DNA of 39,747 nucleotides from Candidatus Woesearchaeota archaeon (GCA_003650545.1 QMQO01000009.1:1-39747); one strand, 5' to 3'. Numbered from the stretch's first letter, positions 2 to 39,530 are shown. The notes: generated by a model not told the origin, from the sequence alone. Program-made: numbers and translations.

Positions 2-3000
2 GGTGACTTATGCGATGGTGATCAATCCTGTTGTGAGAATAAATTAACATCTCCACCCTGTTATTGGGATGGATATTGTCAAGGAGAAATCCAGGGTTGT
101 GGTGATGTTCTAGACGAAAGTCTTTGTGCTCAATTAGCCAACATGGGTGCTCCATGCGGTTGGGATAATGGACAATGTGTGGAATCAGGTGGTGGTCCTC
201 CTGGCGAATTAGTTTGTTTAGGCGGACCTGATAATTGTCCTTTAGTACCTAATCCAGATCAGTCTGATGTTGATACAGATAACGTAGGAGATGTGTGCGA
301 TAATTGTCCAGATATTTATAATCCTAACCAACTTGATTCTGATGGCGGTTATTTATGTGTTTTTGTTGGAATGCCTATGGTTGCAGGAGGATATCCTCAG
401 ACAGGCGAACTCTATTTTGACAACTCAACAGGAATTCCATACTATGTAGCAAGCTCTAATGCGATCCTTTATAATGGAATTGTGTACGAAGATTTCGTGG
501 ACCCTCCATATGAAGGTGCTGTTGGAGTGGATTATATGGGATATGGAATAGAAAATATCAAACAAGCTGTTAAAGGAGAATACACAATTTTGTATGATGA
601 TACAACAGGTTATGATTATGGCATTGATGGAACAACAGATGTAAATCTTGCTTTGATAACAACCTGTATGGGAGAATCTGGTCCTTGTTTGCATTTAACA
701 ATGTACACACCAATGAGCAAACAAGATTTCATGAATGTTTTTGCAGGTATGCCTGTAACTATTGATTTGTGGATTGATGGTATATTCAAATCATCTGCTC
801 CTGGTGAAGATTACACGTGGGATTTTCCAGAAGCATCCGGAGTGGTGTGCGGATCCTTGAGTGCAGAAGAATGTGAAAATTATGTTGAGTGTAAATACAA
901 GTTTATTTCAGATGAATTTGGAGATGCTTGTGACAATTGTCCAAATATCTATAACCCAGCTCCAGCTCCTGGTTATCCACAGCCTGATCAAGACCAGGAT
1001 GGTTTTGGAGATGCTTGTGACAATTGTGTATATATACCAAATCCAGATCAATTAGATCTAGACCAGGATCACCTAGGCGATGTTTGTCAGCCAGATATAC
1101 CAGAGGTTCCATTCACAGAGCCAGTAGATCCTTTCTGTTCAACACAAATACCTCCTGATTTAAATGTAGACACAGATGGAGATGGTATTATTAATTCACA
1201 GGATATTTGTCCTGATGAAGCTGATAATATGTGCTATCTATATAAAGGACAAAAATTAATAACAACCACAAGTTCGCACATATTTGAGACAGGCGATCAA
1301 AATGTTGCAGTTGAAATTCCAGCAGGTAGTTTTTCGAGTGATGTAATAGTTACACTGTTAGAGTCTATTCCAAATGACCAAATAAATTCAATGGTTTTAT
1401 TACGGGGAGCTGAGGTCGATATAAAAGATACTATTTGCAATGAAATAAACTGCGAAAGTGGAATAACACTTAAGATAAGATACAATCCTGTGTTGGATAA
1501 TTTAGGAGGAGTATCTGTTTATGTATATGATGAACCAAGGGATAGATGGCTTCCTTATTCAGGTGTATGTGCTAATGGGGAATGTATAATATCAATAACT
1601 GATTGCCATAAAAAATATGGTATCGCTGTATCATGTACCACTCCAAATATGAACAATAAAATGCCTCTAGGCAACACAGGATATTTTTACACAGATAGAA
1701 TCGATCAGCCAACAATCTGGTGCCCAGGAACATATTACCTGCCAGAAGAGACATCTGTAGTTGTTGATAACTTATTGTGGTGTTCGGGTTCTAAATTAAT
1801 AGGTCACATGAATACACCATCTATTATTATCGGCTATAATGAAACATCTTCTGAACTGATGGTGCATGGATGCGATATTCAGAATGCCGGAACTGGAATA
1901 TTAACATATGAAAATGGAGTAGAGAACCCAAAAATTAAAGTTTTCAACAATGTTTTCAGAGATGTTGATACAGGAATTTATTTAGGCTCCAGTTCGAATG
2001 AAAACAGAATACGTGGAAATTGGTTTGTTAACTATGAGCATAGAGGAACAGATTATACAGACCAAACAAATGCAGGAACATTCCTAGTGCTAGACAGGAG
2101 TAGTAATAATGTCATAGACAGAAACACAGTAAAATTCTTTAATACTTTTATCCAAGCTACTGGTTCGTCAGGGAACAATGTGTTAAAGAATATTTTATTT
2201 TATGGCGACAAAATTTCAGAAGATTTTACAGGATCACAGGCTGTAGCAAACATAATATTTAAGGTGCGCAATGGTTTTGTCGGAGATTCACTGTCATTTT
2301 TAAGCAATAACCTACTGAACATTAAAGAATATTGGTTAATAAGTTCGCTCACAGGAGCAATAAACAACGAAGACAATCCAAATTTCTGGGGCGTGTATAA
2401 ACAACCATTTTATGGACCTTTCTCAGCAGGTATCCATGAATTTGATGCGTATTATATTCCAAAGCAATCTATAAATGATATAGCATACTGTGCAGATTAT
2501 TCAGATAAATATGGTATGTATAGATGTATATCAAATTCGCGCTTTGCAAGTTATGTTGTACACGATATAGATAATGTTGATTACAGGCAATTATATATGT
2601 ACGCAACTGAATCTTATTCATTCACATCAGGGTACCCTATGAGTGCTGTGTACCATGTTGGTCCTACTAATACTTATTTCAGTATACCAGCAGTCTTACA
2701 GATATACACTCGCGATCAAACCAATGCAGGCGACATGCAAATATTGTGGCGTAAAGATGATTATGATACCTGGAGTATTTGGACTGATGGTTTTTGCGAC
2801 AAAGATATTGGATATTGTATAGCTGTAATAAACCAAACAGGTCAATTTATAGTAGTTGATCTAAATCCCCCTTGTGTTGATTATGATGGTGATGGTTATC
2901 TAGGAACACCATCTGGTTGCGGACTAGATTGCAATGATTATGATGCAACAAAATGGCAATTGCTTCCTGGATATACAGATGCGGATGGTGATGGGTATGG

Positions 3001-5164
3001 TGCGGGAAGTTTGTTGCAGATTTGTTCAGGTTATGCTTTGCCAAGTGGGTATTCAGATATAAACGGAGATTGTGATGATGTTGACACAGCAAGTTATCCG
3101 GGTGCGCCTGAATTGTGCGATGGTATAGATCAGGATTGTGATGGGTTGTATGATGAAGATTTCGACCTAGACGGTGATACTTACACAACCTGTGGCACAT
3201 TGACAACTAATGGTGAGAGTGTACAATCTGACTGTAATGATAGCGATGCAACTATATGTCCAGGTTGTCCAGAAATAGTCTGTGATGGTATTGATCAAAA
3301 TTGCAATGCTTATGAAGAAATACGAACATTCAATGACCAGTTATTAGTAAAATCAGAGCATAAGAATAAACAAATAAGCAAGTTCTATGATTGGGATGCT
3401 GTGGCTGAAAAATGGAGACTATTTGAAAAATATGATCCTGATGGCTTAGTGATAAAGAACAATGAAATCGGTTTAGCTGACTTTGATGGTGATGGACAAG
3501 ACGAGCTTGTTGTAAAAGAAAAGAAATGGTGTAAGAATAACTGTGACGATATAGATACATGGTTCTACGAATGGGATGGTGATAGCTGGGAACTATACGA
3601 AAGCTCAACAGACGATGGCTTACCATTGAGAGGCAGGCATGAGGTTGCAGCTTGTGACATACTTGGCAATGACGGTATTCCAGAATTGATTGTCACAAGA
3701 GAAGGTTTCAGAAAAGAAACAAGTTTCTACCATTGGAATGCAGCCACAAAACAATGGGAACTTGTTGATTCATCTTCAGATACAGGAGTGTTCCTGAAAG
3801 GAGGCGATACAGCTTGTGGTGATTATGATAATGATGGAGTGAATGAGCTAATAGTCAAGAAAAAACATAAGAGAGGCTTTAAAATATACACGTGGGACAG
3901 TATTAATAAGATTTGGGTGCTAGAAGCAGATCTTCATAAAGCACCAAACAAACCAGGTGACGATTTAATAACAGGTCATAGTGAAATCGCCATGGGCAAT
4001 GTTCGTGGTGTAGAAACAGTGGTGATTGATCCTGATGATAACCCTGACTCAGATGGTGACGGAATTGGCGATTGTTATGATCTTTGTCCAGATATACAAG
4101 GAAGCATCTACCTTGGTTGTCCAGCAGCAGTCACAACCAGCGCAAATATCTATAACATCTTTGGTAGACACATCAAACATAAAGAAGCAAGAGAAGGTCA
4201 GGAAGTATTTATATTTGACAAGCAATGTGTTGACCAAATACTCGCTTCACAGTTTGGAATCAACTGGGAAAACCTAACAGGCGAGGTGTTCACACACAAA
4301 GAAGACGAACTAAATGCAATCTTAAGCAGTGATTGTGAAGGCTTTGTTTGCTGGACAGATGAAAGTGGCGAGTGCACTGTTGGCGTTGATAATGGCGAAT
4401 ATGTTGTCTTTGGACCATTTTCAAGCACACAATGGGTACCCCACAAAGAGCAGGTATGCTATAAAAAATGCTGTGGTAAAAGGAGAGGCAGACATAAATA
4501 CTGTACAGACTACTGTGGTATTAAATGGACGATAACACCTGAACAGTTTAGCTTTGCAGTCTATAAACCAGTGTTATCACTTACAGACGAATTTGGAGAA
4601 GCTCACTTAGACTTCATCAGATTATGGTGGGGTGATAGATTAATACCTGCTGTATTTGCAGGCACAATTGTAGGTTCAGAGTTAAACATAGTTCCAGCAG
4701 AATACTTAGTAGAGATTCCAGAAACAGAGGTAACTCCTATAGTGGAAGATGCAAATGTGACTGGAGATATAGATTATATCTACCCAATATTGATGGAAGC
4801 AGACGCTCCGTGGGAAGTTGAAGTTGGTGTAGAACCACCAGAAGGTCATAATGTATCAACAGACACAGAGATTTTTGTGGATGAGACAACCGAGGTATTG
4901 ACAATTGGTTTAGAAGAAACAAACAGCACCACTTCACCAACAGGCGCGGTAGTAGGCGTACCATCAAGTGATATAGCTCAGTTTACAGTTAGGGCAAAAC
5001 ACCCTGGTGAAAGAAACTTCAAAAAACAGACAGTCACAATAAAGACCACATTTGAACCAGAAGAAGCTAAAAAAGGTTATTTGGCAACACTAACACTAAC
5101 AATAATTGCAGTTGCAATAGCCGCACTAGCTGGTTTGTTGATCTACAAAAGGTTCAGAAAATAA
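2..5164 (+). CDS. Giant Cys/Asp-rich membrane-anchored surface protein (thrombospondin type-3 Ca-binding repeats, beta-helix, MopE-like Cys motifs, FG-GAP/VCBS-like repeats); 5'-truncated by the window
   Basis: The frame is open from position 2 (GDLCDGDQSCC...) into the listed ATG at 143, so the true start lies upstream of the window. It has TSP3-type repeats (DNCPLVPNPDQSDVDTDNVGDVCD; DNCVYIPNPDQLDLDQDHLGDVC), Asn-rich beta-helix repeats (SSNENRIRGNWF), GAPELCDGIDQDCDG motifs and ADFDGDGQDELVV / GDYDNDGVNELIV repeats. It ends in a TM helix plus basic tail (YKRFRK), followed by an oligo-T tract. Confidence 0.85.
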   Translation, partial: GDLCDGDQSCCENKLTSPPCYWDGYCQGEIQGCGDVLDESLCAQLANMGAPCGWDNGQCVESGGGPPGELVCLGGPDNCPLVPNPDQSDVDTDNVGDVCDNCPDIYNPNQLDSDGGYLCVFVGMPMVAGGYPQTGELYFDNSTGIPYYVASSNAILYNGIVYEDFVDPPYEGAVGVDYMGYGIENIKQAVKGEYTILYDDTTGYDYGIDGTTDVNLALITTCMGESGPCLHLTMYTPMSKQDFMNVFAGMPVTIDLWIDGIFKSSAPGEDYTWDFPEASGVVCGSLSAEECENYVECKYKFISDEFGDACDNCPNIYNPAPAPGYPQPDQDQDGFGDACDNCVYIPNPDQLDLDQDHLGDVCQPDIPEVPFTEPVDPFCSTQIPPDLNVDTDGDGIINSQDICPDEADNMCYLYKGQKLITTTSSHIFETGDQNVAVEIPAGSFSSDVIVTLLESIPNDQINSMVLLRGAEVDIKDTICNEINCESGITLKIRYNPVLDNLGGVSVYVYDEPRDRWLPYSGVCANGECIISITDCHKKYGIAVSCTTPNMNNKMPLGNTGYFYTDRIDQPTIWCPGTYYLPEETSVVVDNLLWCSGSKLIGHMNTPSIIIGYNETSSELMVHGCDIQNAGTGILTYENGVENPKIKVFNNVFRDVDTGIYLGSSSNENRIRGNWFVNYEHRGTDYTDQTNAGTFLVLDRSSNNVIDRNTVKFFNTFIQATGSSGNNVLKNILFYGDKISEDFTGSQAVANIIFKVRNGFVGDSLSFLSNNLLNIKEYWLISSLTGAINNEDNPNFWGVYKQPFYGPFSAGIHEFDAYYIPKQSINDIAYCADYSDKYGMYRCISNSRFASYVVHDIDNVDYRQLYMYATESYSFTSGYPMSAVYHVGPTNTYFSIPAVLQIYTRDQTNAGDMQILWRKDDYDTWSIWTDGFCDKDIGYCIAVINQTGQFIVVDLNPPCVDYDGDGYLGTPSGCGLDCNDYDATKWQLLPGYTDADGDGYGAGSLLQICSGYALPSGYSDINGDCDDVDTASYPGAPELCDGIDQDCDGLYDEDFDLDGDTYTTCGTLTTNGESVQSDCNDSDATICPGCPEIVCDGIDQNCNAYEEIRTFNDQLLVKSEHKNKQISKFYDWDAVAEKWRLFEKYDPDGLVIKNNEIGLADFDGDGQDELVVKEKKWCKNNCDDIDTWFYEWDGDSWELYESSTDDGLPLRGRHEVAACDILGNDGIPELIVTREGFRKETSFYHWNAATKQWELVDSSSDTGVFLKGGDTACGDYDNDGVNELIVKKKHKRGFKIYTWDSINKIWVLEADLHKAPNKPGDDLITGHSEIAMGNVRGVETVVIDPDDNPDSDGDGIGDCYDLCPDIQGSIYLGCPAAVTTSANIYNIFGRHIKHKEAREGQEVFIFDKQCVDQILASQFGINWENLTGEVFTHKEDELNAILSSDCEGFVCWTDESGECTVGVDNGEYVVFGPFSSTQWVPHKEQVCYKKCCGKRRGRHKYCTDYCGIKWTITPEQFSFAVYKPVLSLTDEFGEAHLDFIRLWWGDRLIPAVFAGTIVGSELNIVPAEYLVEIPETEVTPIVEDANVTGDIDYIYPILMEADAPWEVEVGVEPPEGHNVSTDTEIFVDETTEVLTIGLEETNSTTSPTGAVVGVPSSDIAQFTVRAKHPGERNFKKQTVTIKTTFEPEEAKKGYLATLTLTIIAVAIAALAGLLIYKRFRK

Positions 5165-5297
5165 TTTTTTCTTTTTTAAATTCTTTTTTAACTCTTTACA
5201 ACCTTTTGATAACAAAACAACATATTTATTCTAACATACAAATTTTTATAACTCAATTATTAGATATTTTATAAAAGAGCCAAAATAAGATGTTAAG

Positions 5298-6149
5298 ATG
5301 TTCAAAATAGACACTAGAAACGAAAAACTCAAGAGAGTTATACACAATGTTCTCTTAAATAAGAAATTACAAACATACTGGGTTTGCTCTAACATTAATG
5401 CGATAGATAGAATGGGGTTTAATGACCATGGCCAGAAACACATAGAAATAGTTATTAAAAATGCATTGACTATGTTTAATATTCTTAAAAGTCGCGGAGT
5501 CTACTCAAACATAATAAAGCACTACGCAAAAAATCCATTTGTCAAAAACTATGGTTTTAGTCATGATGATTCTGAAGTTATCATTTTTCTAGCAGCTTGT
5601 ACGCATGATATTGGCCACGCTGTTAGTCGCAAGGACCATCATTTTCATAGCACCTATTTAGCATTACCTTTATTAGAGGAAATCCTAGACGATATTTACC
5701 AAGAAGAACAACGTACAATTATTACTTCAGAAATTTTGCATTGCCTCGCTACAAACTATGCCAAAAAGAAACCCTTAACACTGGAAGCAAGCATTTTAAG
5801 GGTAGCAGATGCTCTTGATATGGCTGCTGGCCGCGCAAGGATTGCATTTAAATCAAATGCAGTAATTCCTGGGAAAAAAAAAGGAGAGTTCACAATTATA
5901 ACCACCGACGAAAAACCTGTTATTCATCAAACGTCTTCTTTAGGTATAAAAGAAATCATTATTAAACCTGCCCAAGAAAAACCAATATTAATAGAGATTC
6001 TTGTTGTGGATTCTTCAGCGATTTTCCAGATAGACGAATTGCTAAGGAAAAAAATTCGCGGTACGGGCCTAGAGAAATACATACAATTAATCATAAGAAG
6101 AGTTCCTGGAAAAACACACCAATTCAAAAAGATTAATTTTAAAATTTAG
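5298..6149 (+). CDS. HD-superfamily metal-dependent phosphohydrolase (COG3294-like)
   Basis: Motifs NDHGQKH, HDIGH and ADALD..GRAR are present. The His usually found between HD and the last Asp appears replaced (ILHCLATNY). No GYP motif. Confidence 0.8.
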   Translation: MFKIDTRNEKLKRVIHNVLLNKKLQTYWVCSNINAIDRMGFNDHGQKHIEIVIKNALTMFNILKSRGVYSNIIKHYAKNPFVKNYGFSHDDSEVIIFLAACTHDIGHAVSRKDHHFHSTYLALPLLEEILDDIYQEEQRTIITSEILHCLATNYAKKKPLTLEASILRVADALDMAAGRARIAFKSNAVIPGKKKGEFTIITTDEKPVIHQTSSLGIKEIIIKPAQEKPILIEILVVDSSAIFQIDELLRKKIRGTGLEKYIQLIIRRVPGKTHQFKKINFKI

Positions 6150-6161
6150 AGAGGAATTCAA

Positions 6162-8522
6162 ATGCTTAAGCATGCTGCAGTTATAGGTTTAGATACTTTG
6201 AATATTGATTTGATGCGTTACATACCATCTTTTGATATTTTTAAAGGTTATTCTTCTCTTGAAGTATTAATAGATCCTAAATGTGATAGAATAGTTTTAG
6301 AAACAGAAGAAGACAGAAAACAGTACGAAGAAGCAATAAGAGGATTCCCCATCGTTTCCCAGAGCAATGGGGGTTGCTTGTTTAATGTTCTTTCTGCATT
6401 AAAGAGCTCAATAGGAAAGGAAAATCATCTTATTTTAGCCGGAACCCTTGGTCTTGATGAAAATGGAATGTTAGACGAGTTTGCACGTTCATATTTAAGA
6501 GAAGCGCATGAAGCAGGCATAATTGTGCTTGCCAATAAAGTACCTGTTAGTGCTGGCAAAGGTGGTACTGGTACAATAGAAGTCCTAATTTCAGATAATC
6601 CTATAGATAAACAATTTAAAGAACGCAAATTTGTAGCAAACAGAGGGGTTTCAACAGAAATTGTTTTTGACAAATCTTATTCTTCTTATCTCTACAAATT
6701 CCTAGCAGATCACGAACTCATTCTTCACTATACAATTGACTCAGAAGAAAAATTTCCAATCTATTTCTACAGGTCAGATGAACACAGACTACCTTTGCAC
6801 AAAGCTAACGGTAAGGTTCATCCCAAATATATCAACTTTGATTTTGTCTCAATCGATACAATTACCAGAAAAAGAGATTATCTTGAGGGAACACGAAGGA
6901 TTGCTGTCACAAATGGTTTTGCTTCTGAAAAACACCCCGATGTAGCTCTTAAATTCTTACAAATTGCTAGACAGAATGGCTGTGAAACCTTCTTTAGCTT
7001 TTCTAACCCAGATGTTGTTAGACATATCAATGACCTTTCTAAGAAAACAGGAACTGATTATTTTGAACAAATAATGAAAAACACAATGATCATCTCAAGC
7101 AATAAAAATGAATACGAATCAGTTGCTTCAAAAAACAATTCCAAAACTTTAAAAAACCATCCCCAAGTTTCTGTTTCTTTGTTGGATTCTTTAAGGAACA
7201 CAGAGGTGTTTCCTCCAGCATTATGTGTGTGCACCATGGGAGAAAATGGGCTTGTTCTAGTTACAAAGTCTCCTTTAAAACCAGACTTAGTAGAAGTAGA
7301 AGCAGATAAAATTTCACCAGAACTGTTTGCAGACACAACAGGCGCAGGCGATTTTATTCTTAGTAAACTTGTGAAGTACACCTTGTTAACGAGAAATATC
7401 ACTGATTTGAACCCATTCATGTTAGCTCAATATTTGCGTGAAGCAGGTACAGAGGCGTGTAAGTTTAAGGGGGGGAGTGTGCTATCTGTCGATAAGGAAA
7501 AAATGTTTATGAATCGCGTGATGAAAATCAACGATGAAGTAAGACTCGAATGTAGCAACAGTGATGAAGTTATAGAATGCTTATTAAAGCATTCTAAGGA
7601 TTTTTCAAAAGCAACAATGGGTGTGGTATATGAAGTTAGAGATGATAAGATAATGCCAATAGCTAGTACAGAAGAGATTAAACTGTACAACGATCTCGAC
7701 ATTTCAAAAACAGTGTTCAAAGAATTTCTAGAAGGCAAAGAAAAGATTCAGCTGAACGATGTATCGCAAATACTTTCTGACACTATCGCCTTTGATCACC
7801 ATACAAATGCAAAAGCTATAATTGCTTACCCTGTATTTATCGATGATAAATTAAAATACATTTATGAGCTAACTCATCATACAAAGGGTAAATTTAAATC
7901 AGACGAAGCTTACTTCTTAAGATATATTTGTACTGCTAAATATATCGATGATTCCTTACATCACGATCTTGACGAGAGGACTGGGTTATATAACGATGAA
8001 TATATGCAAAAACGTTTAAGTACAGAAATAGAAAAACTGAAAAGATTTAAAGACAGCGCCACACTGGTAATGGGAGATATTGATTTTTTTAAAAGAGTAA
8101 ATGATAACTATGATCATATAAAAGGAAACGAAGTTTTAAAAGAATTTGGCAAAATCTTTCACATAGCATTAAGAAATACTGATGTTATTGCTCGCTGGGG
8201 AGGTGAAGAATTTCTATTCTGGCTTACAAATACACCTAAAAAAAATGCAGAAATTCCTCTTACCCGGTTACAAGAGTTTATTTTAGCAAATAAATATTTG
8301 TCAGAGTTAAGAAATGACGCAGAAAAAAGAAGATTGCAAATCCCGCTGACAATGACTTTCGGCTATGTTGGATTCCCTGAAGATGTTAATGATATAAATA
8401 TGTCTACAGAAGATCTTATAAAAGACATGATCGAAAAAGCAGATTTGGCCCTTCTATATGGAAAAAGTAAATTAAATCGTAATGTTATCGTTCCTTATGA
8501 TTCTTCATTATCTTCACAGTAA
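6162..8522 (+). CDS. PfkB/ribokinase-family (adenosine/nucleoside kinase-like) domain + GAF-like domain + GGDEF nucleotide cyclase fusion
   Basis: The N-terminal region has PfkB motifs NGGCLFN, GTLGLDE, TGTIEVLI...ERKF, SNKNE, TMGENG and DTTGAGD (7332-7352). A GAF-like middle follows (AIIAYPVFIDDKLKYIYEL). The C-terminus has DERTGLYN, DIDFFKRVND, an RNTD I-site and RWGGEEF (GGEEF at 8199-8213). RBS gagg, 12 bp after the HD gene. Confidence 0.85.
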   Translation: MLKHAAVIGLDTLNIDLMRYIPSFDIFKGYSSLEVLIDPKCDRIVLETEEDRKQYEEAIRGFPIVSQSNGGCLFNVLSALKSSIGKENHLILAGTLGLDENGMLDEFARSYLREAHEAGIIVLANKVPVSAGKGGTGTIEVLISDNPIDKQFKERKFVANRGVSTEIVFDKSYSSYLYKFLADHELILHYTIDSEEKFPIYFYRSDEHRLPLHKANGKVHPKYINFDFVSIDTITRKRDYLEGTRRIAVTNGFASEKHPDVALKFLQIARQNGCETFFSFSNPDVVRHINDLSKKTGTDYFEQIMKNTMIISSNKNEYESVASKNNSKTLKNHPQVSVSLLDSLRNTEVFPPALCVCTMGENGLVLVTKSPLKPDLVEVEADKISPELFADTTGAGDFILSKLVKYTLLTRNITDLNPFMLAQYLREAGTEACKFKGGSVLSVDKEKMFMNRVMKINDEVRLECSNSDEVIECLLKHSKDFSKATMGVVYEVRDDKIMPIASTEEIKLYNDLDISKTVFKEFLEGKEKIQLNDVSQILSDTIAFDHHTNAKAIIAYPVFIDDKLKYIYELTHHTKGKFKSDEAYFLRYICTAKYIDDSLHHDLDERTGLYNDEYMQKRLSTEIEKLKRFKDSATLVMGDIDFFKRVNDNYDHIKGNEVLKEFGKIFHIALRNTDVIARWGGEEFLFWLTNTPKKNAEIPLTRLQEFILANKYLSELRNDAEKRRLQIPLTMTFGYVGFPEDVNDINMSTEDLIKDMIEKADLALLYGKSKLNRNVIVPYDSSLSSQ

Positions 8523-8618
8523 ACTTTATAAACAACCTGCATCATATTAAAGAGGTAATAAAAATCTTAAAGGTTTCAGCTGTTTCAGCTCAAATTTTTA
8601 ATATAAGAAAGACCTGCA

Positions 8619-10172
8619 ATGAAAACAAAAAAAGAACTGGGTGATTTGATTGACCTTAAACTATGGAATAAACTTCAGGCTAGCTTTGCCCAGGCAATAA
8701 AACTCCCTGTGCTCACAATAAATCCAGATGGTGAGATCATCTCAATCAGCCGTGATTTTCCGTTCTTTTGCCAAATGATTGAGAATAACGAAGAAGGCGC
8801 AAGAAAATGTACAGAATGTCGCAAACTAAATTTTGAAAAACTAAAGAAAGATGAAAATCGAATTTTATTTTATTATTGTCATGCAGATTTACTAAATATA
8901 ATGGTTCCAATCACGGTTAAAGGCGAACAAGTAGGTGCTGTTGTTTGTGAGTCTATACTACAAACAAAGAAAAACGTACCGAAGTGCAGAAAGGCGTCAG
9001 AAACTACAAAAATACCAACAGTTGAGTTTATTGATGCTATAAACGAAATGCGTATCCAAAAAAGAGAAGATGTAGAAAATTATGCAAAAGTTTTGTACAT
9101 TCTTTCTAATACTATTCCTGAGCTTGTACACCAAAAAGTGACGTCAGATCAAAAGATAAATGAATTAACAATTCTACATGATATCTCTAAAATGTTAAGT
9201 TCAACTCTAGAAATGGATAAAATGCTTGAAACTACAATGAAATTCATGAAGACTGCAGCAAAAGCAAAAGCATGCAGCACAGTTATAATTGAAGAAAATA
9301 GCAAAAAAAGATTTGAATTTGGAGAAGGCACTAATCAGTACATTAGCTTTGAGCAAGCAACTGTTGAAGAAGTCCAGAAGACAAGAAAACCTGTTGTGAT
9401 TCCTAATATCGAGAGTGAATCAGACAATAATATGTCAATAATATCTATTCCTATGAGTGTGAAAAACAAAGTAATCGGAGCAATAAATATATATGGCGCA
9501 CCTATCGAAAAGATGGGTGAGCACGATCTGAACTTTTTAACTATCATAACAAACCAAACAGCGTTAGCTGTTCAGAACGCCCAGCAATACGAACAAATCA
9601 AAGAACTAGCAATAACTGATAAACTAACATCATTGTATAACAGGCGACATTTTGAAAAACTAGTAGATACAGAGATTGAGCGTAGTAAACGTTATTCACA
9701 TCCGTTATCAATAGCTTTGCTTGACATAGACAACTTTGGTCACTACAACAATACGCATGGTCATCCTCGCGGTGACGAACTACTAGAGAACCTTTCAAAT
9801 ATATTAAAGCAGTGCACGCGCAAGATAGATATTCTTGGCAGATACGGTGGTGAGGAATTTATAATAGTCATGCCCAACACGAACGAGCAAGACGCGATAA
9901 ATGTTACTGAGCGAATAAGAAAAGCTATTGAAGAATTTGATTTTTATGGCCGTGACAAACAACCACTTGGAAAGGTTACAGCTTCAATTGGAGTTGTCAC
10001 TAATTTCAATTTTTCCAAAAAACAAGCTGAGTTAGTAGAAGCTGCTGACAGAGCACTCTACAATGCAAAAAATTCCGGCAGAAATCGGGTTATACATGAA
10101 ATCATTCCTGGTAACGATCCAATGGAACAGAAAAGCTTTGATGACTTTGTATTTAAAGGTGTTAAGGACTAA
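8619..10172 (+). CDS. PocR sensor + GAF + GGDEF diguanylate cyclase
   Basis: PocR Cys pattern (FFCQMI...KCTEC...YYCHADL...VPI), then GAF (ISIPMSVKNKVIGAINI...LAVQNAQ). The cyclase has ITDKLTSLYNRR, LDIDNF, an RKID I-site, RYGGEEF (GGEEF at 9846-9860) and ADRALYNAKNSGRN. Confidence 0.9.
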   Translation: MKTKKELGDLIDLKLWNKLQASFAQAIKLPVLTINPDGEIISISRDFPFFCQMIENNEEGARKCTECRKLNFEKLKKDENRILFYYCHADLLNIMVPITVKGEQVGAVVCESILQTKKNVPKCRKASETTKIPTVEFIDAINEMRIQKREDVENYAKVLYILSNTIPELVHQKVTSDQKINELTILHDISKMLSSTLEMDKMLETTMKFMKTAAKAKACSTVIIEENSKKRFEFGEGTNQYISFEQATVEEVQKTRKPVVIPNIESESDNNMSIISIPMSVKNKVIGAINIYGAPIEKMGEHDLNFLTIITNQTALAVQNAQQYEQIKELAITDKLTSLYNRRHFEKLVDTEIERSKRYSHPLSIALLDIDNFGHYNNTHGHPRGDELLENLSNILKQCTRKIDILGRYGGEEFIIVMPNTNEQDAINVTERIRKAIEEFDFYGRDKQPLGKVTASIGVVTNFNFSKKQAELVEAADRALYNAKNSGRNRVIHEIIPGNDPMEQKSFDDFVFKGVKD

Positions 10173-10227
10173 ACATTGTTAAAGACTAAACATTTATAAA
10201 TCAGGACATTTCTATCGTAACTAAAAG

Positions 10228-10761
10228 ATGGACGAATTAAAAGCTACCCAGAAAATTTCAAGGAAAAATTATGTTAGTTCAAATTCTGCTCTCTCTAAAA
10301 CATTAAAATCTGGGGATCTTGGCTTCAGAAAAACAAAGGCAAAAAATATATTACAGAAAACATTACAAAAAACCCAAGGTTATGACCATAAAAATAAACT
10401 AACCCCTGGTCAGCGTGCTGCAGATGCTGTTGCTAGGTTTGGTGGCAGTTGGACTTTCATAGTGATATTTTTAGGTTTTCTTATTTTGTGGATGATTTTA
10501 AACTCTATTATTCTTGTAAAATATGAAAAATCATTTGACGCCTATCCTTATATTTTACTCAATCTAGTCCTTTCGTGTCTAGCAGCAATCCAGGCCCCTA
10601 TCATCTTGATGAGTCAGAATAGAGCTGCAGAACGAGACAGGATAAAAGCAGATCGTGATTATGCTATAAATAGAAAAGCAGAGCGTGAAAATCAAATAAT
10701 CATGCGTGATCTTGAGCAGATGAAGAAGATGCTTAAAGCAATGGAGCAGAAAAAAATATGA
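10228..10761 (+). CDS. DUF1003 family membrane protein
   Basis: Signature TPGQRAADAVARFGGSWTFI...FDAYPYILLNLVLSCLAAIQAPIILMSQNR, with two TM helices. TATA box tttataaa at 10193-10200. Confidence 0.9.
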   Translation: MDELKATQKISRKNYVSSNSALSKTLKSGDLGFRKTKAKNILQKTLQKTQGYDHKNKLTPGQRAADAVARFGGSWTFIVIFLGFLILWMILNSIILVKYEKSFDAYPYILLNLVLSCLAAIQAPIILMSQNRAAERDRIKADRDYAINRKAERENQIIMRDLEQMKKMLKAMEQKKI

Positions 10762-12552: not shown

Positions 12553-13254
12553 ATGTTAAAAGCAGACTTGCACATTCATACATCAAAAGATCCTGAGGAT
12601 CGTAGATATATACGCTTATCCCCGAAGGAAATAATAACGATTGCAGCAAAAAAAAAATTTGATGTAATTTCCATAACGCATCATTCTCATGTTTACTTTA
12701 ATGAAGAACTAAAGAATTTCGCCAAAAAACAAGGCATTCTACTTATACCAGGCTGTGAACATAGAATCGATGGTAAAGACATCCTCATTTATAATATAAC
12801 AGAAAAAGAACGCCGAAAAATCAAGACATTTAAAGACTTGAATAAAATTAGAAATAAAGCATTGGTAATCGCTCCACATCCATATTACTTTGGAATACAT
12901 AGCCTTGGAAGAGAGCTATGCAAAAATATTAATTTATTTGACGCAATAGAATATAGTCATTTCTACACAAGATGGTTCAATCCAAATAAGAAAGCAATAA
13001 AAATTGCTATAAAACACAACAAACCATTAATAGGCACATCCGACACACATTATTTATTTCAGTTTGGCACAACCTATACCCTTATCGATGCAAAAAAAAA
13101 CATAAAATCTGTTTTTAAAGCCATAAAGGAAAATAAAATTGTTGTTAAATCAAAACCTCTTTCACCACATGTTTTTCTTATATTAATAGCTAGGATGATT
13201 TTCACATTACCTAAGAAGCTATTTCAAATTATTTCATTTAAACATGAGTTTTAA
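12553..13254 (+). CDS. PHP-domain metallophosphoesterase
   Basis: The DLHIHTS, ISITHH, GCE, APHP and GTSDTH motifs match the PHP fold. Confidence 0.9.
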   Translation: MLKADLHIHTSKDPEDRRYIRLSPKEIITIAAKKKFDVISITHHSHVYFNEELKNFAKKQGILLIPGCEHRIDGKDILIYNITEKERRKIKTFKDLNKIRNKALVIAPHPYYFGIHSLGRELCKNINLFDAIEYSHFYTRWFNPNKKAIKIAIKHNKPLIGTSDTHYLFQFGTTYTLIDAKKNIKSVFKAIKENKIVVKSKPLSPHVFLILIARMIFTLPKKLFQIISFKHEF

Positions 13255-13331: not shown

Positions 13332-13919
13332 ATGCCTATAGAACGTCCAATAATTAATTATGTTTTGAAATACAAAGAGGTGTTTGATCCTTGGGAACTT
13401 TATCTATTCATGAGAGAGTGGGCTATTGAAGAAGGCTGGGTATCTCGTAACGAAACAGAATTTAAGGAAACTTTTTATTTACAAAAGGAAACCAGTGCGG
13501 GCACAGAAATCTGGTATTGGTGGCGCTTCCATAAACCAATAAGTTCATTTTACAGATACGACTACAAAATAGATGCACACATATTATTTCTTAAGCCACA
13601 TGAATTAATAATTGAAGGGAAAAAGCTTAAGACTTTCCACGCTGAAATAGAGTTCACAGTGCGTGGTATACTTGTGATGGACCAAGAAGGTAACTGGGAG
13701 AAACACTGGTTATTGAAACACCTTTTAACACGCTATTTTATTAATCGAATTTACAAGAAGGATATTGAATATCACGGCCTTGTAATTTCTAGAGAAGCCA
13801 AAAAACTACAGGAATTTCTGAAATCATACTTTCAAATGGGCTCATTTGAGCGTGATCGTGAAGAGCGTTATTTTTTCGCAAAGCAATCTGGTCAAGTTCA
13901 GCCAGGCAGGATGAGATAA
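13332..13919 (+). CDS. Hypothetical protein, paralog 1 of a tandem triplet
   Basis: Shares blocks with the next two ORFs (YKEVFDPWELY..M..W; LVMDQEGNWEK; LQEFLKSYFQM). 1-bp gap to the next gene. Confidence 0.8.
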   Translation: MPIERPIINYVLKYKEVFDPWELYLFMREWAIEEGWVSRNETEFKETFYLQKETSAGTEIWYWWRFHKPISSFYRYDYKIDAHILFLKPHELIIEGKKLKTFHAEIEFTVRGILVMDQEGNWEKHWLLKHLLTRYFINRIYKKDIEYHGLVISREAKKLQEFLKSYFQMGSFERDREERYFFAKQSGQVQPGRMR

Positions 13920-13920
13920 A

Positions 13921-14448
13921 ATGCCAAAGTACGAGATGCATAAAAAATACTTATACAAAGCTCCTGGAAGGCAGATAGACAAAATTGAATACTCTGGGAT
14001 TGTAGACTGGGATGGTTTATATGCTTTAATTTCAAACTTTTTTATTTCTAGGAGGTATATTTTCACAGAAACATCAAATAAATTCAAAGCAGACAAAATA
14101 GGCTATCATTATGAGATAGAAATGGAAGCCTGGCGCAAAGTTACAAATTATTTCAAATATTGGCAAAAACTTTATATTAGAATCTGGGAAAAAGAACTTG
14201 TTGAAGTTATTAAAGAAGGTCAGAAAAAAAAAATGTACAGAATGCGTTTTTTTATTGAATTTATGCCTGCATTAGAGACAGACTACCAAAAACGCTTTGA
14301 AAAAAGCGAATTGGGAGAGAAATTTAGAGATTGGATTGAGAAGTACCTACTCAAACGCGAAATTGAATTTAGACACTGGGACAGTCTCTATTATGAAACA
14401 ATTGCATTGCGTAACGAGATAAAAAATTATTTAAACATTCAAGTATAG
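13921..14448 (+). CDS. Hypothetical protein, paralog 2 of a tandem triplet
   Basis: Shared blocks YSGIVDWDGLY, AWRKVTNY, LETDYQKRFEK and IKNYLNI. Confidence 0.8.
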   Translation: MPKYEMHKKYLYKAPGRQIDKIEYSGIVDWDGLYALISNFFISRRYIFTETSNKFKADKIGYHYEIEMEAWRKVTNYFKYWQKLYIRIWEKELVEVIKEGQKKKMYRMRFFIEFMPALETDYQKRFEKSELGEKFRDWIEKYLLKREIEFRHWDSLYYETIALRNEIKNYLNIQV

Positions 14449-14454
14449 TTAAAA

Positions 14455-14970
14455 ATGGCAGAAGAAATGATTGTTGTGGATCATAAAACCTTGGACTACC
14501 AAGGCTTAGTTGATATTCCTGAGTTTTATAAAGTAGTAGATGGTTATTTTAAACGTAGAGGTTACGATAAAAAGGAAGCTTTGACAGCAGAAAATGTTAC
14601 AGAAACAGGAAAATACATGGAAGTTCGGCTAGAACCATGGAAAACACTAACTGATTATGCGCAGAGCAAGTTTGTGATACGCATACAATTCTTTGACACG
14701 AAAGAAGTCGAAATAGAGATTGACAAAGTGAAAAAACGTATTCATCAAGCTCATGTTAAAATAGTAACAGATGCATACCTTGTAACAGACTATGAAGGGA
14801 GATGGGAAGAAAATGCTTTTTCATTTTTCATCCGCACTCTGATGGACCGTTATTTTTTAAGAAGCCTTACCAACAAACAACGTGCAGAGATAGCCGAAGA
14901 CGTTGAGCGCTTTTATCAACTTATTGGTTCATTCTTGAACATACAGAAATATAGAATGTCCACATATTGA
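14455..14970 (+). CDS. Hypothetical protein, paralog 3 of a tandem triplet
   Basis: Shared blocks YQGLVDIPEFY, PWKTLTDY, LVTDYEGRWEE and IGSFLNI. 6-bp gap from paralog 2. Confidence 0.8.
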   Translation: MAEEMIVVDHKTLDYQGLVDIPEFYKVVDGYFKRRGYDKKEALTAENVTETGKYMEVRLEPWKTLTDYAQSKFVIRIQFFDTKEVEIEIDKVKKRIHQAHVKIVTDAYLVTDYEGRWEENAFSFFIRTLMDRYFLRSLTNKQRAEIAEDVERFYQLIGSFLNIQKYRMSTY

Positions 14971-22209: not shown

Positions 22210-24000
22210 TTATTTTTTCCTTTTAACCAATTTCTTACCTTTAGGTTTATAGATTTTAATAGCAACAACATTGCTTTTGTAATACAGAATCCCTATCATA
22301 AAGCCAATTATTAATCCAGCAATCAAAAATATAATTAATAACATTTTTGAATAGTGTTTGATCTCTTTCAGATCAACCTTCTCTCCAGGCTGTTCTTCTA
22401 AATATAGATCAAGGTTGCTCAATTCAAGAGAATATTCGTAGTACAACAAAGAAGAATATTTATCTGTCATATTCAGACTGTTTCCATACTCATAATAGCT
22501 ATAAGCAAGTATTGGAAAATTTCCTTTTTCAATTTGTTCCAGTAAGCTTCTTTCAACAGCTATTTTTTTTTGACCAAGGTAATTATTAATGCTATCATTA
22601 CTAACAGTGATGATACTCATATAAAAATTACTCTGAGCTTTTGCTCTGCTAGATTGGAATAAACAAAATTCATAATCCCCTATTTTAGAAGCCATTTTTG
22701 CTTCGTCAACTATTTTCTCAGCTTCTCTAAAGACACCAGGAAAGAACAAGTCAATGTACTGTACACGTTGCTCAGCTTCTGCAAGTTTAGTCGTACACGA
22801 ATTTTTCAAAGCAGAACTATCAAGCCTTAACCTTTTTCCAGGATAATCAAAAAAATCAGACCAGAATAGAGCACTCTCAAACCTTTCTATGCTGTATGCA
22901 AAGTTCATTGCAGCTACCTCACTGTTGTTTATGTTGTCTAAGCCTTTTTTTAGATGGTCCTTGGCGTCAGATAAACGCTCTCTCACAATCATCTTTGTCT
23001 GAAGATTGGTTATAGTATCAGTTTCCGCGTTTTTTATTTTTTCTTCCAAGCTAGAAATCAAGTGTTTGATTTTCAACGCTAACTTCATATAACCCTTCTC
23101 ATCTAATTTATTATTCAAAATCTCTAGATATTTCAATTGAACATTTGCACCAAAACAAAAGCTTGCAGCAGAATAAAAATTACCGTCTTTACGAGCTCTA
23201 ATAGACTTGTTAAACATTTCCATTGCACTTTCTTTAAGTTCTGTCTCATTCTCTTCTAGTTGAATCCCAACACTTTTCTCAATCAAATGTTCAGAGATTG
23301 TACAGATTTTATCTGCAATACTTTTCATCAAATTTGCATATTCACTTGTTGCAACAACATATCCACTTTTCTTTTCATACTTTGTGCCAATAAATTCCAA
23401 CATTCCATCATATAGGTTTGAAACCTCAACAACCTCAACACCTTTTTTCTTTCCATAATAAACTAAGTCAATTGTTTTATTTCCTTCTTCATATAATCTT
23501 TCTCCTATAGGGATCAAAACTTTTTTTATTTCGGCTTTAGCTGCTGCATCAATCTTTGCTTTGAGACCACCTACTGGGCCTATTACACCCCCTGAATTAA
23601 TCGTGCCAGTCACAGAAACATCTTGATCAACAGCTAAGCCATCAAGAGTTGCAATTGTTAATAATGTAATTGCGGAACCGGCACTAGGCCCACCAACTAA
23701 CGCAGACTCAGCCCTTATTGTGTAGAAAAAATCCAACTTGCTGCAATCTTTATTTAGGAAGTCACAGGCAATTTCTTTAGCAATTCTAGCAGACATCTGA
23801 GTATCTAGCTTTGTTATAGGATACGTGTCTATAAAGACGCGGCCATTTCCTTCTTCAATCTCAACAGTGAGTTCAGCAACACCACCAATAAATTCACCAT
23901 TTTGTTTTTCAGCAACAGCTAACAACTTCATCTTGTTAGAAACAGCTTGTACACTTAAAACAAGCAATAATAGTATAAGTAACCATGCGATTTTTTTCAT
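22210..24000 (-). CDS. Secreted/membrane-anchored Lon-type (S16) Ser-Lys protease lacking the AAA+ module
   Basis: GGPSAG (catalytic Ser), VTGTINSGGVIGPVGGLKAKIDAA (catalytic Lys), a helical C-terminal region and a C-terminal TM plus basic tail. The start is reassigned to ATG 24000 (signal peptide MKKIAWLLILLLLVLSVQA, TATA at 24023-24030). The 52 extra upstream codons in the ORF track are AT-rich promoter sequence. Confidence 0.88.
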   Translation of the reverse strand: MKKIAWLLILLLLVLSVQAVSNKMKLLAVAEKQNGEFIGGVAELTVEIEEGNGRVFIDTYPITKLDTQMSARIAKEIACDFLNKDCSKLDFFYTIRAESALVGGPSAGSAITLLTIATLDGLAVDQDVSVTGTINSGGVIGPVGGLKAKIDAAAKAEIKKVLIPIGERLYEEGNKTIDLVYYGKKKGVEVVEVSNLYDGMLEFIGTKYEKKSGYVVATSEYANLMKSIADKICTISEHLIEKSVGIQLEENETELKESAMEMFNKSIRARKDGNFYSAASFCFGANVQLKYLEILNNKLDEKGYMKLALKIKHLISSLEEKIKNAETDTITNLQTKMIVRERLSDAKDHLKKGLDNINNSEVAAMNFAYSIERFESALFWSDFFDYPGKRLRLDSSALKNSCTTKLAEAEQRVQYIDLFFPGVFREAEKIVDEAKMASKIGDYEFCLFQSSRAKAQSNFYMSIITVSNDSINNYLGQKKIAVERSLLEQIEKGNFPILAYSYYEYGNSLNMTDKYSSLLYYEYSLELSNLDLYLEEQPGEKVDLKEIKHYSKMLLIIFLIAGLIIGFMIGILYYKSNVVAIKIYKPKGKKLVKRKK

Positions 24001-24188
24001 ACATAAAGATAAAAAAATAATATTTATAAAGATTGTGTATTTAAACCATTTAAAAATTAAAAAATAAAATAACAAAATAAAAAAATTTATATATAATGTT
24101 TGTTTTTTCAGATCTGGGAGAAGTGGGATCAACACATAAAGATAAATTTTAAGCAATATTTTAAGTAATAAAACACCAAAAGGTTAAA

Positions 24189-24506: not shown

Positions 24507-27500
24507 TCACTCATTTTTCTTGATATTATACTTTTTATGATTCTTGTGTGTACTTTTAAACATTCTCATCAACTCATCATACTTAGACCTCTTTGGTTTT
24601 AACAATAAAACAATGACAGAAATCAACACAATGATAATGCTGATAATAACAATAATCTCCTGTAGGGAGAATGGTAGTCTAATCTCAGCAATCCATTTTT
24701 GCTTGGGTTCAACAATTTTTTCTGATACCAAAACAGCTTTTTCAGCAGGGGCTAGAGCTACAGGTGGTTCTTTTTCAGTCACTTCTGGTTTTTTTTCTAC
24801 ACTTGGTGCTGGAGCTTTGAACCCCTTCACTGTGATTGCAAAATAACTAAATCCAGGGGTTTCAGCTTCGTAATAAATATATTGGCTATCTTCTCTAATC
24901 ACTTTTGTGGGAAGTTCGTTCCAGCTGCCATTATAGCGTGCAAGTGTAACATTGTTAACATTAATACCATTATTTGAAATCCATAATTTGCTAACCTCAA
25001 ACCTAACTTTTGCAACCAAGATATTCTCAGTAGGGATATTTGTACTGATATTGACGTAGGCCCCAACAAAACCTTCTATTTCAGGTACTGTTAATTTGCC
25101 AACCTGTGCAACAGTAAACTTAGCGTCTGTAAAGTCTATGTTAAGTTTTACTTTTAAAGCATCAATACCCAGTACATCAAAGCTGACTGTCTTTTCAGTA
25201 TTAGCTCTAATCGTTGCATAAATCTTGGTAGTTGCATTTACAAAAACACTAGGAATGTAAGTTGCAAAACTCCCTCCTCCACCACTGCTACCACCTCCAC
25301 TGGTTGATGTAATTGTACAGCTTTGGCTTTCTTCAGGTTTATTATTGATAGTGCCACAGTTGTTTACGTCAGTACAAGTTCTGGTTTGGGTCCCACTAGA
25401 ACAAGAACTCCAACTTGTGCAGCTCCAAGACTCGGTGCATTGTTGCTTAACAGCCGAATGTACTAAGCCTGAGACTTTGTATTGTGTATCATTTGTAGAA
25501 AGCGCACAACTATAATCGCCACTTGTACCTGGACAGATTATATAATATTCATTTGTATCATTACACCCATCACTTATCTGTGTTAAACTAGAAACCTCTT
25601 CATCCTTTATACATACACTTGTCTTGTTGGTGTCTATTATATCAACATAAATACTTTTTTTAACACTTTGAGAACTTAAATCCAATCCGCGAACAATAAC
25701 ACTACCAATAGTGCTTGTTGAGTTCTGTACTTTTATACTTATGTCTGCAAGATTCAAGGTTTCATTCTTGCTAAAGTTGAAATCAAATCGTACAATAGGC
25801 TTGCTTGCATTACCTATCATGACAATCCTTGTCCCGTTAAATAGCTTACTAAGATTGGTTTCACCGTCAATAGTAACATTAACCGCTTCTACATTTATAT
25901 CTATATTAGAGGCAATTCCATTTAGTGTATCCTGATTATCGATTATACCATCGTTATCATCATCTGTATCGTTTATGTCTGGTGTTCCATCATCGTCTGT
26001 GTCTCTTACTATTATAAACCTGGTTTGGTTAAAACCAGTCAGTGAGGCGGAATCAATAGACCAGACATCGATTGTGTGAGTTGTATAGTTATATAACGAA
26101 ACAACAGTCGCTATTGAAGAACAATTATTACACAGTGTAGCATTTGCTTCTGTATCTAATCTATATATTGAATCTACAGGTTCGCTAAATGTCACATTCA
26201 GCCAGACGTTTGGAGAGCTTCTTGTTATTGTCGATCCGTTCTGTGGACTATTAATGATCACATCTGGATTAGTAATATCTTGACAGCTTGTTGCATTATC
26301 TATGCAGGTTTCCTGAAGAGAACATGCATCATGTAATACCCAATCACCTTGCAATGCCAATGTTCCATCACAAGCACCAGTACCTGTACCGCAATATTGC
26401 ACAATGCTCTGCTTCCAGAGATCATCCCCTAGGGCTGTTCCGTTTGGACACCCATAGTCTACACCATAACTTGCATTACAAATAGTTGTCCCTGGATCAT
26501 TCACATAGCTGTCACAACTGGCGAAGATAATGCTTCCATTTCCATCACAAGTGTTATTAACGTCATAATAGTTTCTACATATAGTATCAAGATAATCACA
26601 GTCTGTGGTATTTACATATGTTCCAGACGGCATGTTGGTGTAATTGTTACATATTCCATAATTAATTCCGCCAGAGCCATCACAAGTTGTGTTTGTATCG
26701 TGGTAGTCTCTACATATATTATCTAAATAATCGCAATCAGTGGTGTTAATAACATACCCGTTTGGTTTATATAATGCAACGTGGCATCCAGTAGTACTAT
26801 TAAAAATATAGCTAATGCAAGTCACGTTAGCAGGTAGATTAACCAGACTCTCGTTATCGCATTGATCTAATGCATCGCACAGACCGTCACCATCAGTATC
26901 TATGTTTGAAATTGTTGCAATAAAAACATAACTTACATTGTACTCTCCATCTCCCGCGGTTGCTGTTACAGCTGCAGCACCATACCAACATCCGGCTGAG
27001 CTAACATTAATCCTATTTCCGTTTAAGGAGCTTACAACATTCGTTTCGTTATCAGATACATAATAAAGTAAGGTTTTGTTATCTACGTCAGAGAAATAAT
27101 TAGTCAAGTTAGCCGTCATATTATAGCTGTTCTGTTGTACAACTATATTAGGAATAGATGTAATAACAACAGGAGCATCATTCACAGCAGTTACAGTGAC
27201 AGTGAAATCATCTGATGTATTATATTGTCCGTCTCCTGCTGTAACATTTACAACACCAACACCAAAATATTCAGTATTGGGTGTCACATTAATTACATTT
27301 CCTGTTATCAAACCAACAGATATGTTAGGATTAGAGCTTGTCAGATAATAAGTTATTGTGCTATCAGGATCAGAAAAATGATCGTCTAAGTCAACCGTTG
27401 TATTGAACTCATCCTCAACAATCGTCATGTCTGAGAGTGGGACATCCAATGTTGGTGGATCATTAACTGCAAGAGTAAAGGTTCTATTATTTACCCCCCA

Positions 27501-38899: not shown

Positions 38900-38939
38900 T
38901 AATTATTTTTAACTTTTTATAATTATAAAGGTGGTTTAA

Positions 38940-39530
38940 ATGAAAAAAAGAGTGACAATTGTAATCGCTATTGTTTTTTTGATAATATGCCTTATTCTAT
39001 TGTTAATCAAATTCTGGCCAGAACCTCCTGTCGAGTATACAGATGATCGTTACCCAAACGAAGCACCAGTCATTATTGAGTGCTATTCTGATTTTGAATG
39101 TCCATTTTGCCATAAGGCACTGTCAGTTTTAAGTGCTGTTAAAGAAAAATATGGGGATGAAGTTGAAATCCAGTTCAAGCATTTTATTGTGCATGGTGCT
39201 CAATCACGTTTAGCAGCTCAGGCGAGCGAATGTGCCCGTGATCAAGGAATGTTCGATGAGTATAAGCATGCATTATACGAGCATGGTAGTCCATTCACAA
39301 CAGATGTAATGGAGAATATTGCACAAGACCTAGGCCTTAACAGAGATAAATTTTCAGACTGCCTTGAATCTGGTGAGAAGGATATTGTTGTTAGATATGA
39401 TCAACAGGTTGCAAAGATAAAAGGTATATCTGCAACACCAACATTCATTATTAATAATGATATTAAGCTTGTTGGCTTAAGATCTCAAGCAGATTTTGAG
39501 ATTATTATTGATAGATTATTGACAAAATAG
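38940..39530 (+). CDS. DsbA/BdbD-family thiol-disulfide oxidoreductase
   Basis: N-terminal TM, YSDFECPFC, AAQASECARDQG and GISATPTFIIN. Confidence 0.9.
   Translation: MKKRVTIVIAIVFLIICLILLLIKFWPEPPVEYTDDRYPNEAPVIIECYSDFECPFCHKALSVLSAVKEKYGDEVEIQFKHFIVHGAQSRLAAQASECARDQGMFDEYKHALYEHGSPFTTDVMENIAQDLGLNRDKFSDCLESGEKDIVVRYDQQVAKIKGISATPTFIINNDIKLVGLRSQADFEIIIDRLLTK

Follow-up and report, generated by a model that had tools for sequence, protein, structure and literature searches.

Does a DPANN archaeon carry a cyclic dinucleotide signalling module that acts on a surface protein, or do the genes concerned simply lie side by side? The question is raised by positions 5298-10761 of a 39,747-nt stretch of DNA from Candidatus Woesearchaeota archaeon (GCA_003650545.1 QMQO01000009.1:1-39747), the whole of which is called the window here. 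The open reading frame (ORF) listing of the window placed four ORFs in this locus, all on the + strand, at 5298-6149, 6162-8522, 8619-10172 and 10228-10761; these coordinates agree with a preliminary description of four co-oriented genes encoding an HD phosphohydrolase (P0001), a PfkB-GAF-GGDEF protein (P0002), a PocR-GAF-GGDEF protein (P0003) and a DUF1003 protein (P0004). The reading that we favour, with somewhat better than even confidence, is that a Woesearchaeales-type genome encodes two independent cytoplasmic sensor proteins with GGDEF outputs, likely makers of cyclic di-GMP (c-di-GMP), and that the HD and DUF1003 genes are neighbours. P0003 is a new member of a published family and P0002 a unique fusion with a moderately secure N-terminal assignment.

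The PocR (107.6 bits), GAF (36-40 bits) and GGDEF (PF00990; 159.1 bits, cut-off 23.8) domains of P0003 all scored above the curated Pfam cut-offs, as did DUF1003 (PF06210) in P0004, and the NCBIfam profile TIGR00254 matched P0003 at 174.2 bits (cut-off 37.4). The motif DIDNF was located at residue 369, RKID at 401 and GGEEF at 410, with RxxD 5 residues before GGEEF. Of 8000 candidates scored in a protein search with P0003, 3077 were at E <= 1e-3, and the best 120 of these were listed. Among these 120, the first 30 after P0003 itself (P0005-P0034) were full-length PocR-GAF-GGDEF orthologues (E 1e-207 to 2.5e-82, identity 32-62%, coverage 88-98%), and the six that carry an organism name were assigned to Candidatus Woesearchaeota (five) and Nanoarchaeota (one). 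From P0035 on, the matches listed were GAF-GGDEF proteins without PocR (coverage approximately 61%, E 1e-56), bacterial where named; P0003 differs from them in its archaeal host and in the PocR domain ahead of GAF, which was found in none of the bacterial matches listed.

Alignment of the 31 family sequences revealed invariant residues D369, D371, N377, G381, H382, G385, D386, R408 and GGEEF 410-414, and the invariance of all catalytic residues across the 31 members argues for selection on catalysis. In a FastTree phylogeny of 175 GGDEF domains all 31 family domains formed one clan (SH-like support 97). The closest solved relatives of P0003 were the active cyclases 6ZXM, 3IGN, WspR (3BRE/3I5B) and PleD (1W25/2WB4), which matched it at E 1e-35 to 5e-30 and share with both GGDEF proteins of the locus the GGDEF fold, DxD, Asn, GGEEF and an inhibitory RxxD site 5 residues upstream; the corresponding values for P0002 were 7e-18 to 7e-13. 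In PleD, we take N335 and D344 to contact guanine and K332, after DxDxF, to contact phosphate; both guanine-contact positions are canonical in P0003 (N377 and D386). P0003 is an ordinary member of a PocR-GAF-GGDEF family conserved across Woesearchaeota. Recurring cysteines were also seen in the PocR region (P0003 residues ~50-110), in FCQ, CxxC-like, YYC and VVC contexts; none is invariant in the family alignment, and a metal or redox site is possible.

P0002 also carries a GGDEF domain (Pfam 93.3 bits, cut-off 23.8; TIGR00254 100 bits, cut-off 37.4), with GDIDFF at residue 638, RNTD at 671 and GGEEF at 680, RxxD again lying 5 residues before GGEEF; the preliminary claim that both cyclases keep a metal-binding DID, a GGEEF A-site and an RxxD I-site is borne out by these positions. 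P0002 also keeps the guanine-contacting Asn and the Lys after DxDxF. No full-length relative of P0002 was found in a word-indexed search (9 matches including itself, the other 8 covering <=23% of the query), nor among the 150 matches listed of 241,596 (E <= 1e-3) in an exhaustive HMMER search of 1.84 billion representatives. The best non-self HMMER match was at E 5e-33, the top matches were proteins with two GGDEF domains, and all 150 listed were confined to query residues 419-785; a few of these alignments begin near residue 462-468, as a GAF-type sensor domain ahead of the GGDEF domain would lead one to expect. No hydrophobic segment was detected in P0002, P0003 or the HD protein.

The N-terminal region of P0002 is, with moderate security, modelled as a ribokinase/adenosine-kinase-like fold, and three lines of evidence support the preliminary PfkB call. 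The ESM Atlas model (predicted template modelling score, pTM, 0.50) matched an adenosine-kinase/PfkB cluster over residues 1-447, with 347 residues aligned and a template modelling (TM) score of 0.85 by target and 0.53 by query, and a weak match to the ribokinase profile TIGR02152 was recorded (14.8 bits, E 0.013). The strings NGG (residue 69), NKNEYE (314) and DTTGAGD (391) occur in family order, and we take them to be the PfkB GG, NxxE and anion-hole/catalytic-Asp motifs. Unlike adenosine kinase, ribokinase and other kinases of this family, P0002 scores below the profile cut-offs, has an N-terminus with no significant match among PDB sequences, and is fused to GGDEF; a literature search for GGDEF and PfkB together in title or abstract found nothing. 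P0002 is a lineage-specific orphan in which a kinase-like domain and a GAF-like linker stand ahead of a GGDEF domain of more divergent sequence. An origin of the GGDEF gene pair by recent tandem duplication was considered and rejected, the two domains sharing 29% identity and that of P0002 lying outside the family clan on a branch of 1.19 in the same tree of 175 domains.

GGDEF proteins of archaea have a published precedent. Sidorov et al. (2026, Mol Microbiol, Sept 2026, PMC13725321) describe GGDEF proteins in archaeal isolates together with 20 proteins from metagenome-assembled genomes (MAGs) of DPANN and other archaea, including the PocR-GAF combination, and the archaeal proteins and heterologous assays in the accessible text of that article make the premise that GGDEF signalling is essentially bacterial, on which the preliminary description had relied, outdated. 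One of the proteins cloned and tested there, MBT3408960.1 from a Woesearchaeota MAG, is a PocR-GAF-GGDEF protein with the same architecture as P0003, and a comparison by eye with its PocR region, as the supplement prints it, shows the two to be collinear there; it shares its lineage label with the named P0003 orthologues and keeps GG(D/E)EF and the signature residues. The accessible text describes single genes and names no phosphodiesterase or receptor, whereas the window has two adjacent GGDEF genes. As open questions the article lists the archaeal phosphodiesterases and receptors, the number of copies in a genome and the physiological role, with the preliminary statement that archaeal chromosomes do not carry turnover proteins in multiple copies (PMC13725321).

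That bacterial DNA came to stand in an archaeal contig here through mis-assembly or mis-binning, an idea invited by the mostly bacterial distribution of the GGDEF, PocR, GAF and DUF1003 families and by the bacterial identity of the nearest non-family matches to P0003, is extremely improbable. Archaeal genes were found on both sides of the locus, a YchF-related gene directly downstream (PRK09602, 546 bits, NCBIfam cut-off 387) and, further on, TopA (topA_arch, 761 bits, cut-off 458), fibrillarin (241 bits, cut-off 113) and a TrmB regulator. The four locus genes have a G+C content (GC) of 0.342-0.354 and a third-position G+C content (GC3) of 0.268-0.299, in line with YchF, TopA and fibrillarin (GC 0.330-0.361, GC3 0.217-0.279), and GC is flat along the window with no compositional break; the marker scores, GC and GC3 uphold the earlier claims of archaeal neighbours and similar base composition. 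The protein collection lists 2 contigs each for P0002 and P0003, all named members of the P0003 family are DPANN archaea from separate records, and the PocR-GAF-GGDEF domains form a clan apart from the bacterial matches. A DPANN origin with no signal of a chimera, as initially proposed, is supported by all of this; the locus belongs to a DPANN archaeal genome of the Woesearchaeales type, and a chimeric contig or contamination with bacterial DNA is very unlikely. Within that genome P0003 and P0002 would most likely make c-di-GMP once their N-terminal ligand-binding domains are occupied, and several observations weigh against the favoured reading. In P0002, GAF_2 at 18.1 bits falls short of its cut-off of 28.6 and PfkB at 15.9 bits of its cut-off of 25.8, the other domain calls of the preliminary description being supported by Pfam, and AlphaFold2 on P0002 residues 1-460 without an alignment gave a predicted local distance difference test (pLDDT) score of 34.4. 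When active sites were compared across 350 GGDEF domains from 278 fetched proteins, it was observed that, unlike canonical cyclases, P0003 has Gly (15 of 350 domains) in place of the usual Lys after DxDxF (306 of 350), while P0002 has two substitutions near the base pocket: Asn (24 of 350) at the base-reading, guanine-contact position on the Watson-Crick face, where Asp stands in 317 of 350, and Asp (2 of 350) at the Gly of the 'GH' pair (Gly in 341 of 350). A scan of genome contigs with patterns from the GGDEF core of the family alignment gave at least 80 loci, all bacterial, which leaves room for a conserved link between the archaeal orthologues and HD or DUF1003 genes. Finally, according to the accessible text of PMC13725321, MBT3408960.1 raised Salmonella biofilm independently of its catalytic motif and is not among the proteins (3 of 7 others) with riboswitch-assay evidence of cyclase activity.

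The last of these points, together with the active-site substitutions, speaks for GGDEF domains that are not c-di-GMP synthases in vivo; one or both would act instead as scaffolds or as nucleotide receptors through the RxxD site, or else they would make something different, for instance a cyclic dinucleotide of mixed purines, given the altered base-contact residue of P0002. We judge this alternative unlikely. The best solved match of the P0002 GGDEF domain was a Hypr GGDEF fusion (6D9M, E 6e-21), and neither P0002 nor the Hypr enzyme GacA (6D9M) has Asp at the base-reading position; in Hypr enzymes, the residue found there sets acceptance of GTP or ATP (the 'Goldilocks' article, PMC6456294, in its accessible part). 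The Hypr signature as given there is Ser with GGDEF, Ser with GGEEF being inactive. In the locus, GGEEF is combined with Asn in P0002 and with the canonical Asp in P0003, neither being the Ser (or Thr) with GGDEF of Hypr proteins. 6D9M also matched the canonical P0003 strongly (E 4e-29), so its rank as top match for P0002 says little. Asn at the base-reading position is moreover a common natural variant, 19 of the 24 domains that carry it keeping an intact GG[DE]EF, and the invariant catalytic residues of the P0003 family also stand against a non-synthase role. A different alternative, which we consider decidedly improbable, would make the four genes one c-di-GMP module, with two synthases, an HD phosphodiesterase and a DUF1003 membrane partner or effector, regulating host attachment via the surface protein encoded upstream; it is to be weighed against the arrangement of the locus, whose features are as follows.

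2..5164 (+): giant surface protein gene, 3' part (1720 amino acids in the window, 5' end open); context only
5268..5275 (+): TTTATAAA, TATA-box-like, 22 nt upstream of the HD start codon (octamer search)
5298..6149 (+): HD-domain phosphohydrolase P0001, 283 amino acids (Pfam HD, 28 bits)
6150..6155 (+): AGAGGA, Shine-Dalgarno-like, 6 nt upstream of the P0002 ATG, within the 12-nt gap after the HD stop (read directly)
6162..7502 (+): PfkB/ribokinase-like N-terminal region of P0002, residues 1-447 (Atlas model, weak profiles, strings)
6162..8522 (+): P0002, 786 amino acids, predicted PfkB-like / GAF-like / GGDEF, orphan architecture
7962..8492 (+): GGDEF domain of P0002, residues 601-777 (Pfam, NCBIfam, alignment)
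8525..8532 (+): TTTATAAA, TATA-box-like, in the 96-nt spacer, 86 nt upstream of P0003
8619..10172 (+): P0003, 517 amino acids, with PocR at 8643-9122, GAF at 9210-9578 and GGDEF at 9600-10094
10193..10200 (+): TTTATAAA, TATA-box-like, 27 nt upstream of the DUF1003 start codon
10228..10761 (+): DUF1003 membrane protein P0004, 177 amino acids (Pfam, 124.4 bits)

The octamer TTTATAAA has 9 copies in the window where 4.66 would be expected, a count reached in 6 of 100 shuffles, and 3 of the 9 copies fall in the three spacers of the locus (5268, 8525 and 10193), which total 284 nt. Both TATA boxes of the preliminary description are present, that at 10193-10200 as given and the first at 8525-8532, one base off the earlier 8524-8532; the copy at 5268-5275 is additional. 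With a box of its own ahead of each, HD-P0002, P0003 and DUF1003 probably form three transcription units, and the 12-nt gap with AGAGGA before the ATG suggests that the HD gene and P0002 are coupled and probably translated from one mRNA. No riboswitch was found with Rfam (0 matches at the gathering score, and one chance-level miRNA match, E 0.66, elsewhere in the window), and a tRNA scan gave 0 genes. The absence of EAL, HD-GYP and PilZ domains from the window, as reported initially, held for the 22 ORF products scanned with Pfam. A reading as a defence system was rejected, with 0 PADLOC matches for 9 proteins.

P0001 matched PF01966 HD at 28 bits (cut-off 22) and returned 528 homologues at E <= 1e-3, of ~260 amino acids and uniformly 39-48% identical; among the 120 listed of these 528, names were Aenigmarchaeota, Bathyarchaeota, Krumholzibacteriaceae or a generic phosphohydrolase label. 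An Atlas cluster has 1905 members, 63% archaeal with Thermoproteota commonest, and bacterial sister clusters. The residues H44, H48, H103, D104, H114, D171 and D174 are invariant in the family alignment. An AlphaFold model of P0001 (pLDDT 84.6, pTM 0.85) gave 0 Foldseek matches in the PDB at E <= 1e-3, its best neighbours being the C-terminal domains (III-IV) of Ppx/GppA proteins (TM by query 0.35-0.39) together with generic HD hydrolases, and with the HD-GYP protein PA4781 at rank 31 (E 0.15, TM by query 0.34). No GYP string is present in the sequence and no HD-GYP or EAL match was obtained with Pfam. In the comparison with phosphodiesterases of the HD-GYP and EAL types, P0001 shares the general HD metal-binding fold, lacks GYP and has Ppx/GppA as its nearest structures. 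P0001 is a member of a broad archaeal and bacterial phosphohydrolase family with no marks of a c-di-GMP phosphodiesterase, and its proposed role as one is not upheld for a protein so widespread (Thermoproteota, Aenigmarchaeota, bacteria), without GYP and without a specific structural match. In the public protein collection the HD gene appears as a 245-amino acid product (P0124, 87% of the ORF; the difference concerns the region of window positions 5298-5411); homologues keep N8, L11, W28, C30, N32 and R38 upstream of that start, which makes the 283-amino acid reading from 5298 the better gene model. An 18-residue insert in the HD protein (residues ~189-206, window 5862-5915) is in 0 of 34 aligned homologues and has pLDDT < 50.

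The DUF1003 protein (124.4 bits, cut-off 27.4) has hydrophobic segments at residues 67-100 and 103-129 and a charged C-terminal tail. No significant solved relative was found among PDB sequences, and in the literature DUF1003 is essentially unstudied, the term being met only in streptococcal work, outside title and abstract. At 12553-13254 (+) a PHP-domain protein matched a CehA/McbA metallohydrolase profile at 41.8 bits (cut-off 80) and a 3',5'-nucleoside bisphosphate phosphatase profile at 23.6 bits (cut-off 400). It had been offered as another candidate phosphodiesterase; these below-cut-off NCBIfam matches were all that was obtained, with nothing tying the protein to cyclic dinucleotides.

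The gene upstream of the locus does encode a surface protein of more than 1700 amino acids, as initially described. It gave a match to a MopE-type Cu-binding motif (48 bits) and below-cut-off matches to NosD-like (20.6 bits) and FG-GAP_3 (18.5 bits) families, and has a C-terminal hydrophobic anchor at residues 1691-1719; the label 'adhesin-like' is reasonable. In bacteria, c-di-GMP is a common control of adhesion. A membrane-anchored giant protein beside four adjacent, co-oriented genes, the same TTTATAAA box in all three spacers and the probable co-translation of HD and P0002 all count in favour of a single module acting on attachment, as does a 1.7-fold excess of diguanylate cyclase genes in sediment-attached over planktonic ultra-small prokaryote MAGs, reported in the accessible part of PMC9938205. 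Adjacency is, however, the only tie between the signalling genes and the surface protein, and of a synthase/hydrolase/membrane-partner unit the coupling of HD and P0002 is what stands, in a locus with probably three transcription units. Two protein searches gave no orthologue of P0002, so neither the pairing of cyclases nor the four-gene set can be a conserved arrangement, and the second cyclase falls as a conserved part of the proposed module. The breadth of the HD family and the poor rank of PA4781 also stand against the module, as do the lack of a receptor domain among the 22 ORF products and of a riboswitch in the window. At the at least 80 bacterial GAF-GGDEF loci (1.24 Mb), homologues of the HD family, DUF1003 or the P0002 N-terminus were found in 0. 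A single contig (1,301,350 bp) is common to an HD homologue (P0126, among the 120 listed of 528) and a PocR-GAF-GGDEF orthologue (P0017), which places them in the same genome and not in adjacency; on the 31,489-bp contig that carries P0005, the closest orthologue, and on family contigs of < 10 kb, none of the 120 listed HD homologues was found, which is weak evidence given that 528 exist. An integrated module and an attachment role are unsupported, and under the favoured reading of two independent sensors HD and DUF1003 would be neighbours, nothing having been found in the window for degradation of the signal, its reception or an action on the surface protein.

Elsewhere in the window, three adjacent ORFs at 13332-14970 (+), of 195, 175 and 171 amino acids and without a Pfam or PADLOC match, form a set of distant paralogues (identity 22-24%, E 9e-11 and 3e-6). 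A 648-amino acid ORF at 22210-24156 (-) had as its sole match the Lon protease C-terminal domain (residues 155-217, 47.5 bits), no AAA+ domain being detected. The 3242-amino acid ORF at 24507-34235 (-) bears a subtilase S8 domain (154.7 bits) together with DUF11 repeats and a weak match to PPC; with its N-terminal hydrophobic segment and C-terminal anchor it is a predicted second giant surface protein, a protease. At 37859-39530 (+), a membrane-anchored protein with a weak GILT thiol-reductase match is followed by a DsbA-like thioredoxin (85.7 bits); these may be extracytoplasmic disulfide-forming genes near large surface-protein genes.

A further reading of the HD-P0002 pair, which we regard as very doubtful, is that of a bicistronic second-messenger switch, coupled to nucleoside salvage and particular to a host-dependent archaeon. 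The ribokinase/adenosine-kinase-type domain, its catalytic strings retained, would sense or phosphorylate a scavenged nucleoside or sugar and gate the divergent GGDEF domain, whose base-reading Asn may allow a wider choice of purine. The HD enzyme, co-transcribed in this reading and drawn from a large family, would act on the product of P0002 as the archaeal phosphodiesterase that is still missing. If true, a family of at least 528 proteins would gain a function, and the first archaeal enzyme of c-di-GMP turnover other than EAL and HD-GYP would have been named.

For the favoured reading of two independent GGDEF sensor proteins, the significance lies in a subject, archaeal c-di-GMP signalling, that was opened only in 2026, going by the accessible text of PMC13725321. 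To it the present locus adds that the PocR-GAF-GGDEF type is a family conserved in Woesearchaeota and constrained at all of its catalytic residues, that two GGDEF genes lie adjacent in one small DPANN genome, and that a unique kinase-like/GGDEF fusion, probably co-transcribed with an HD hydrolase, offers a testable protein pair.

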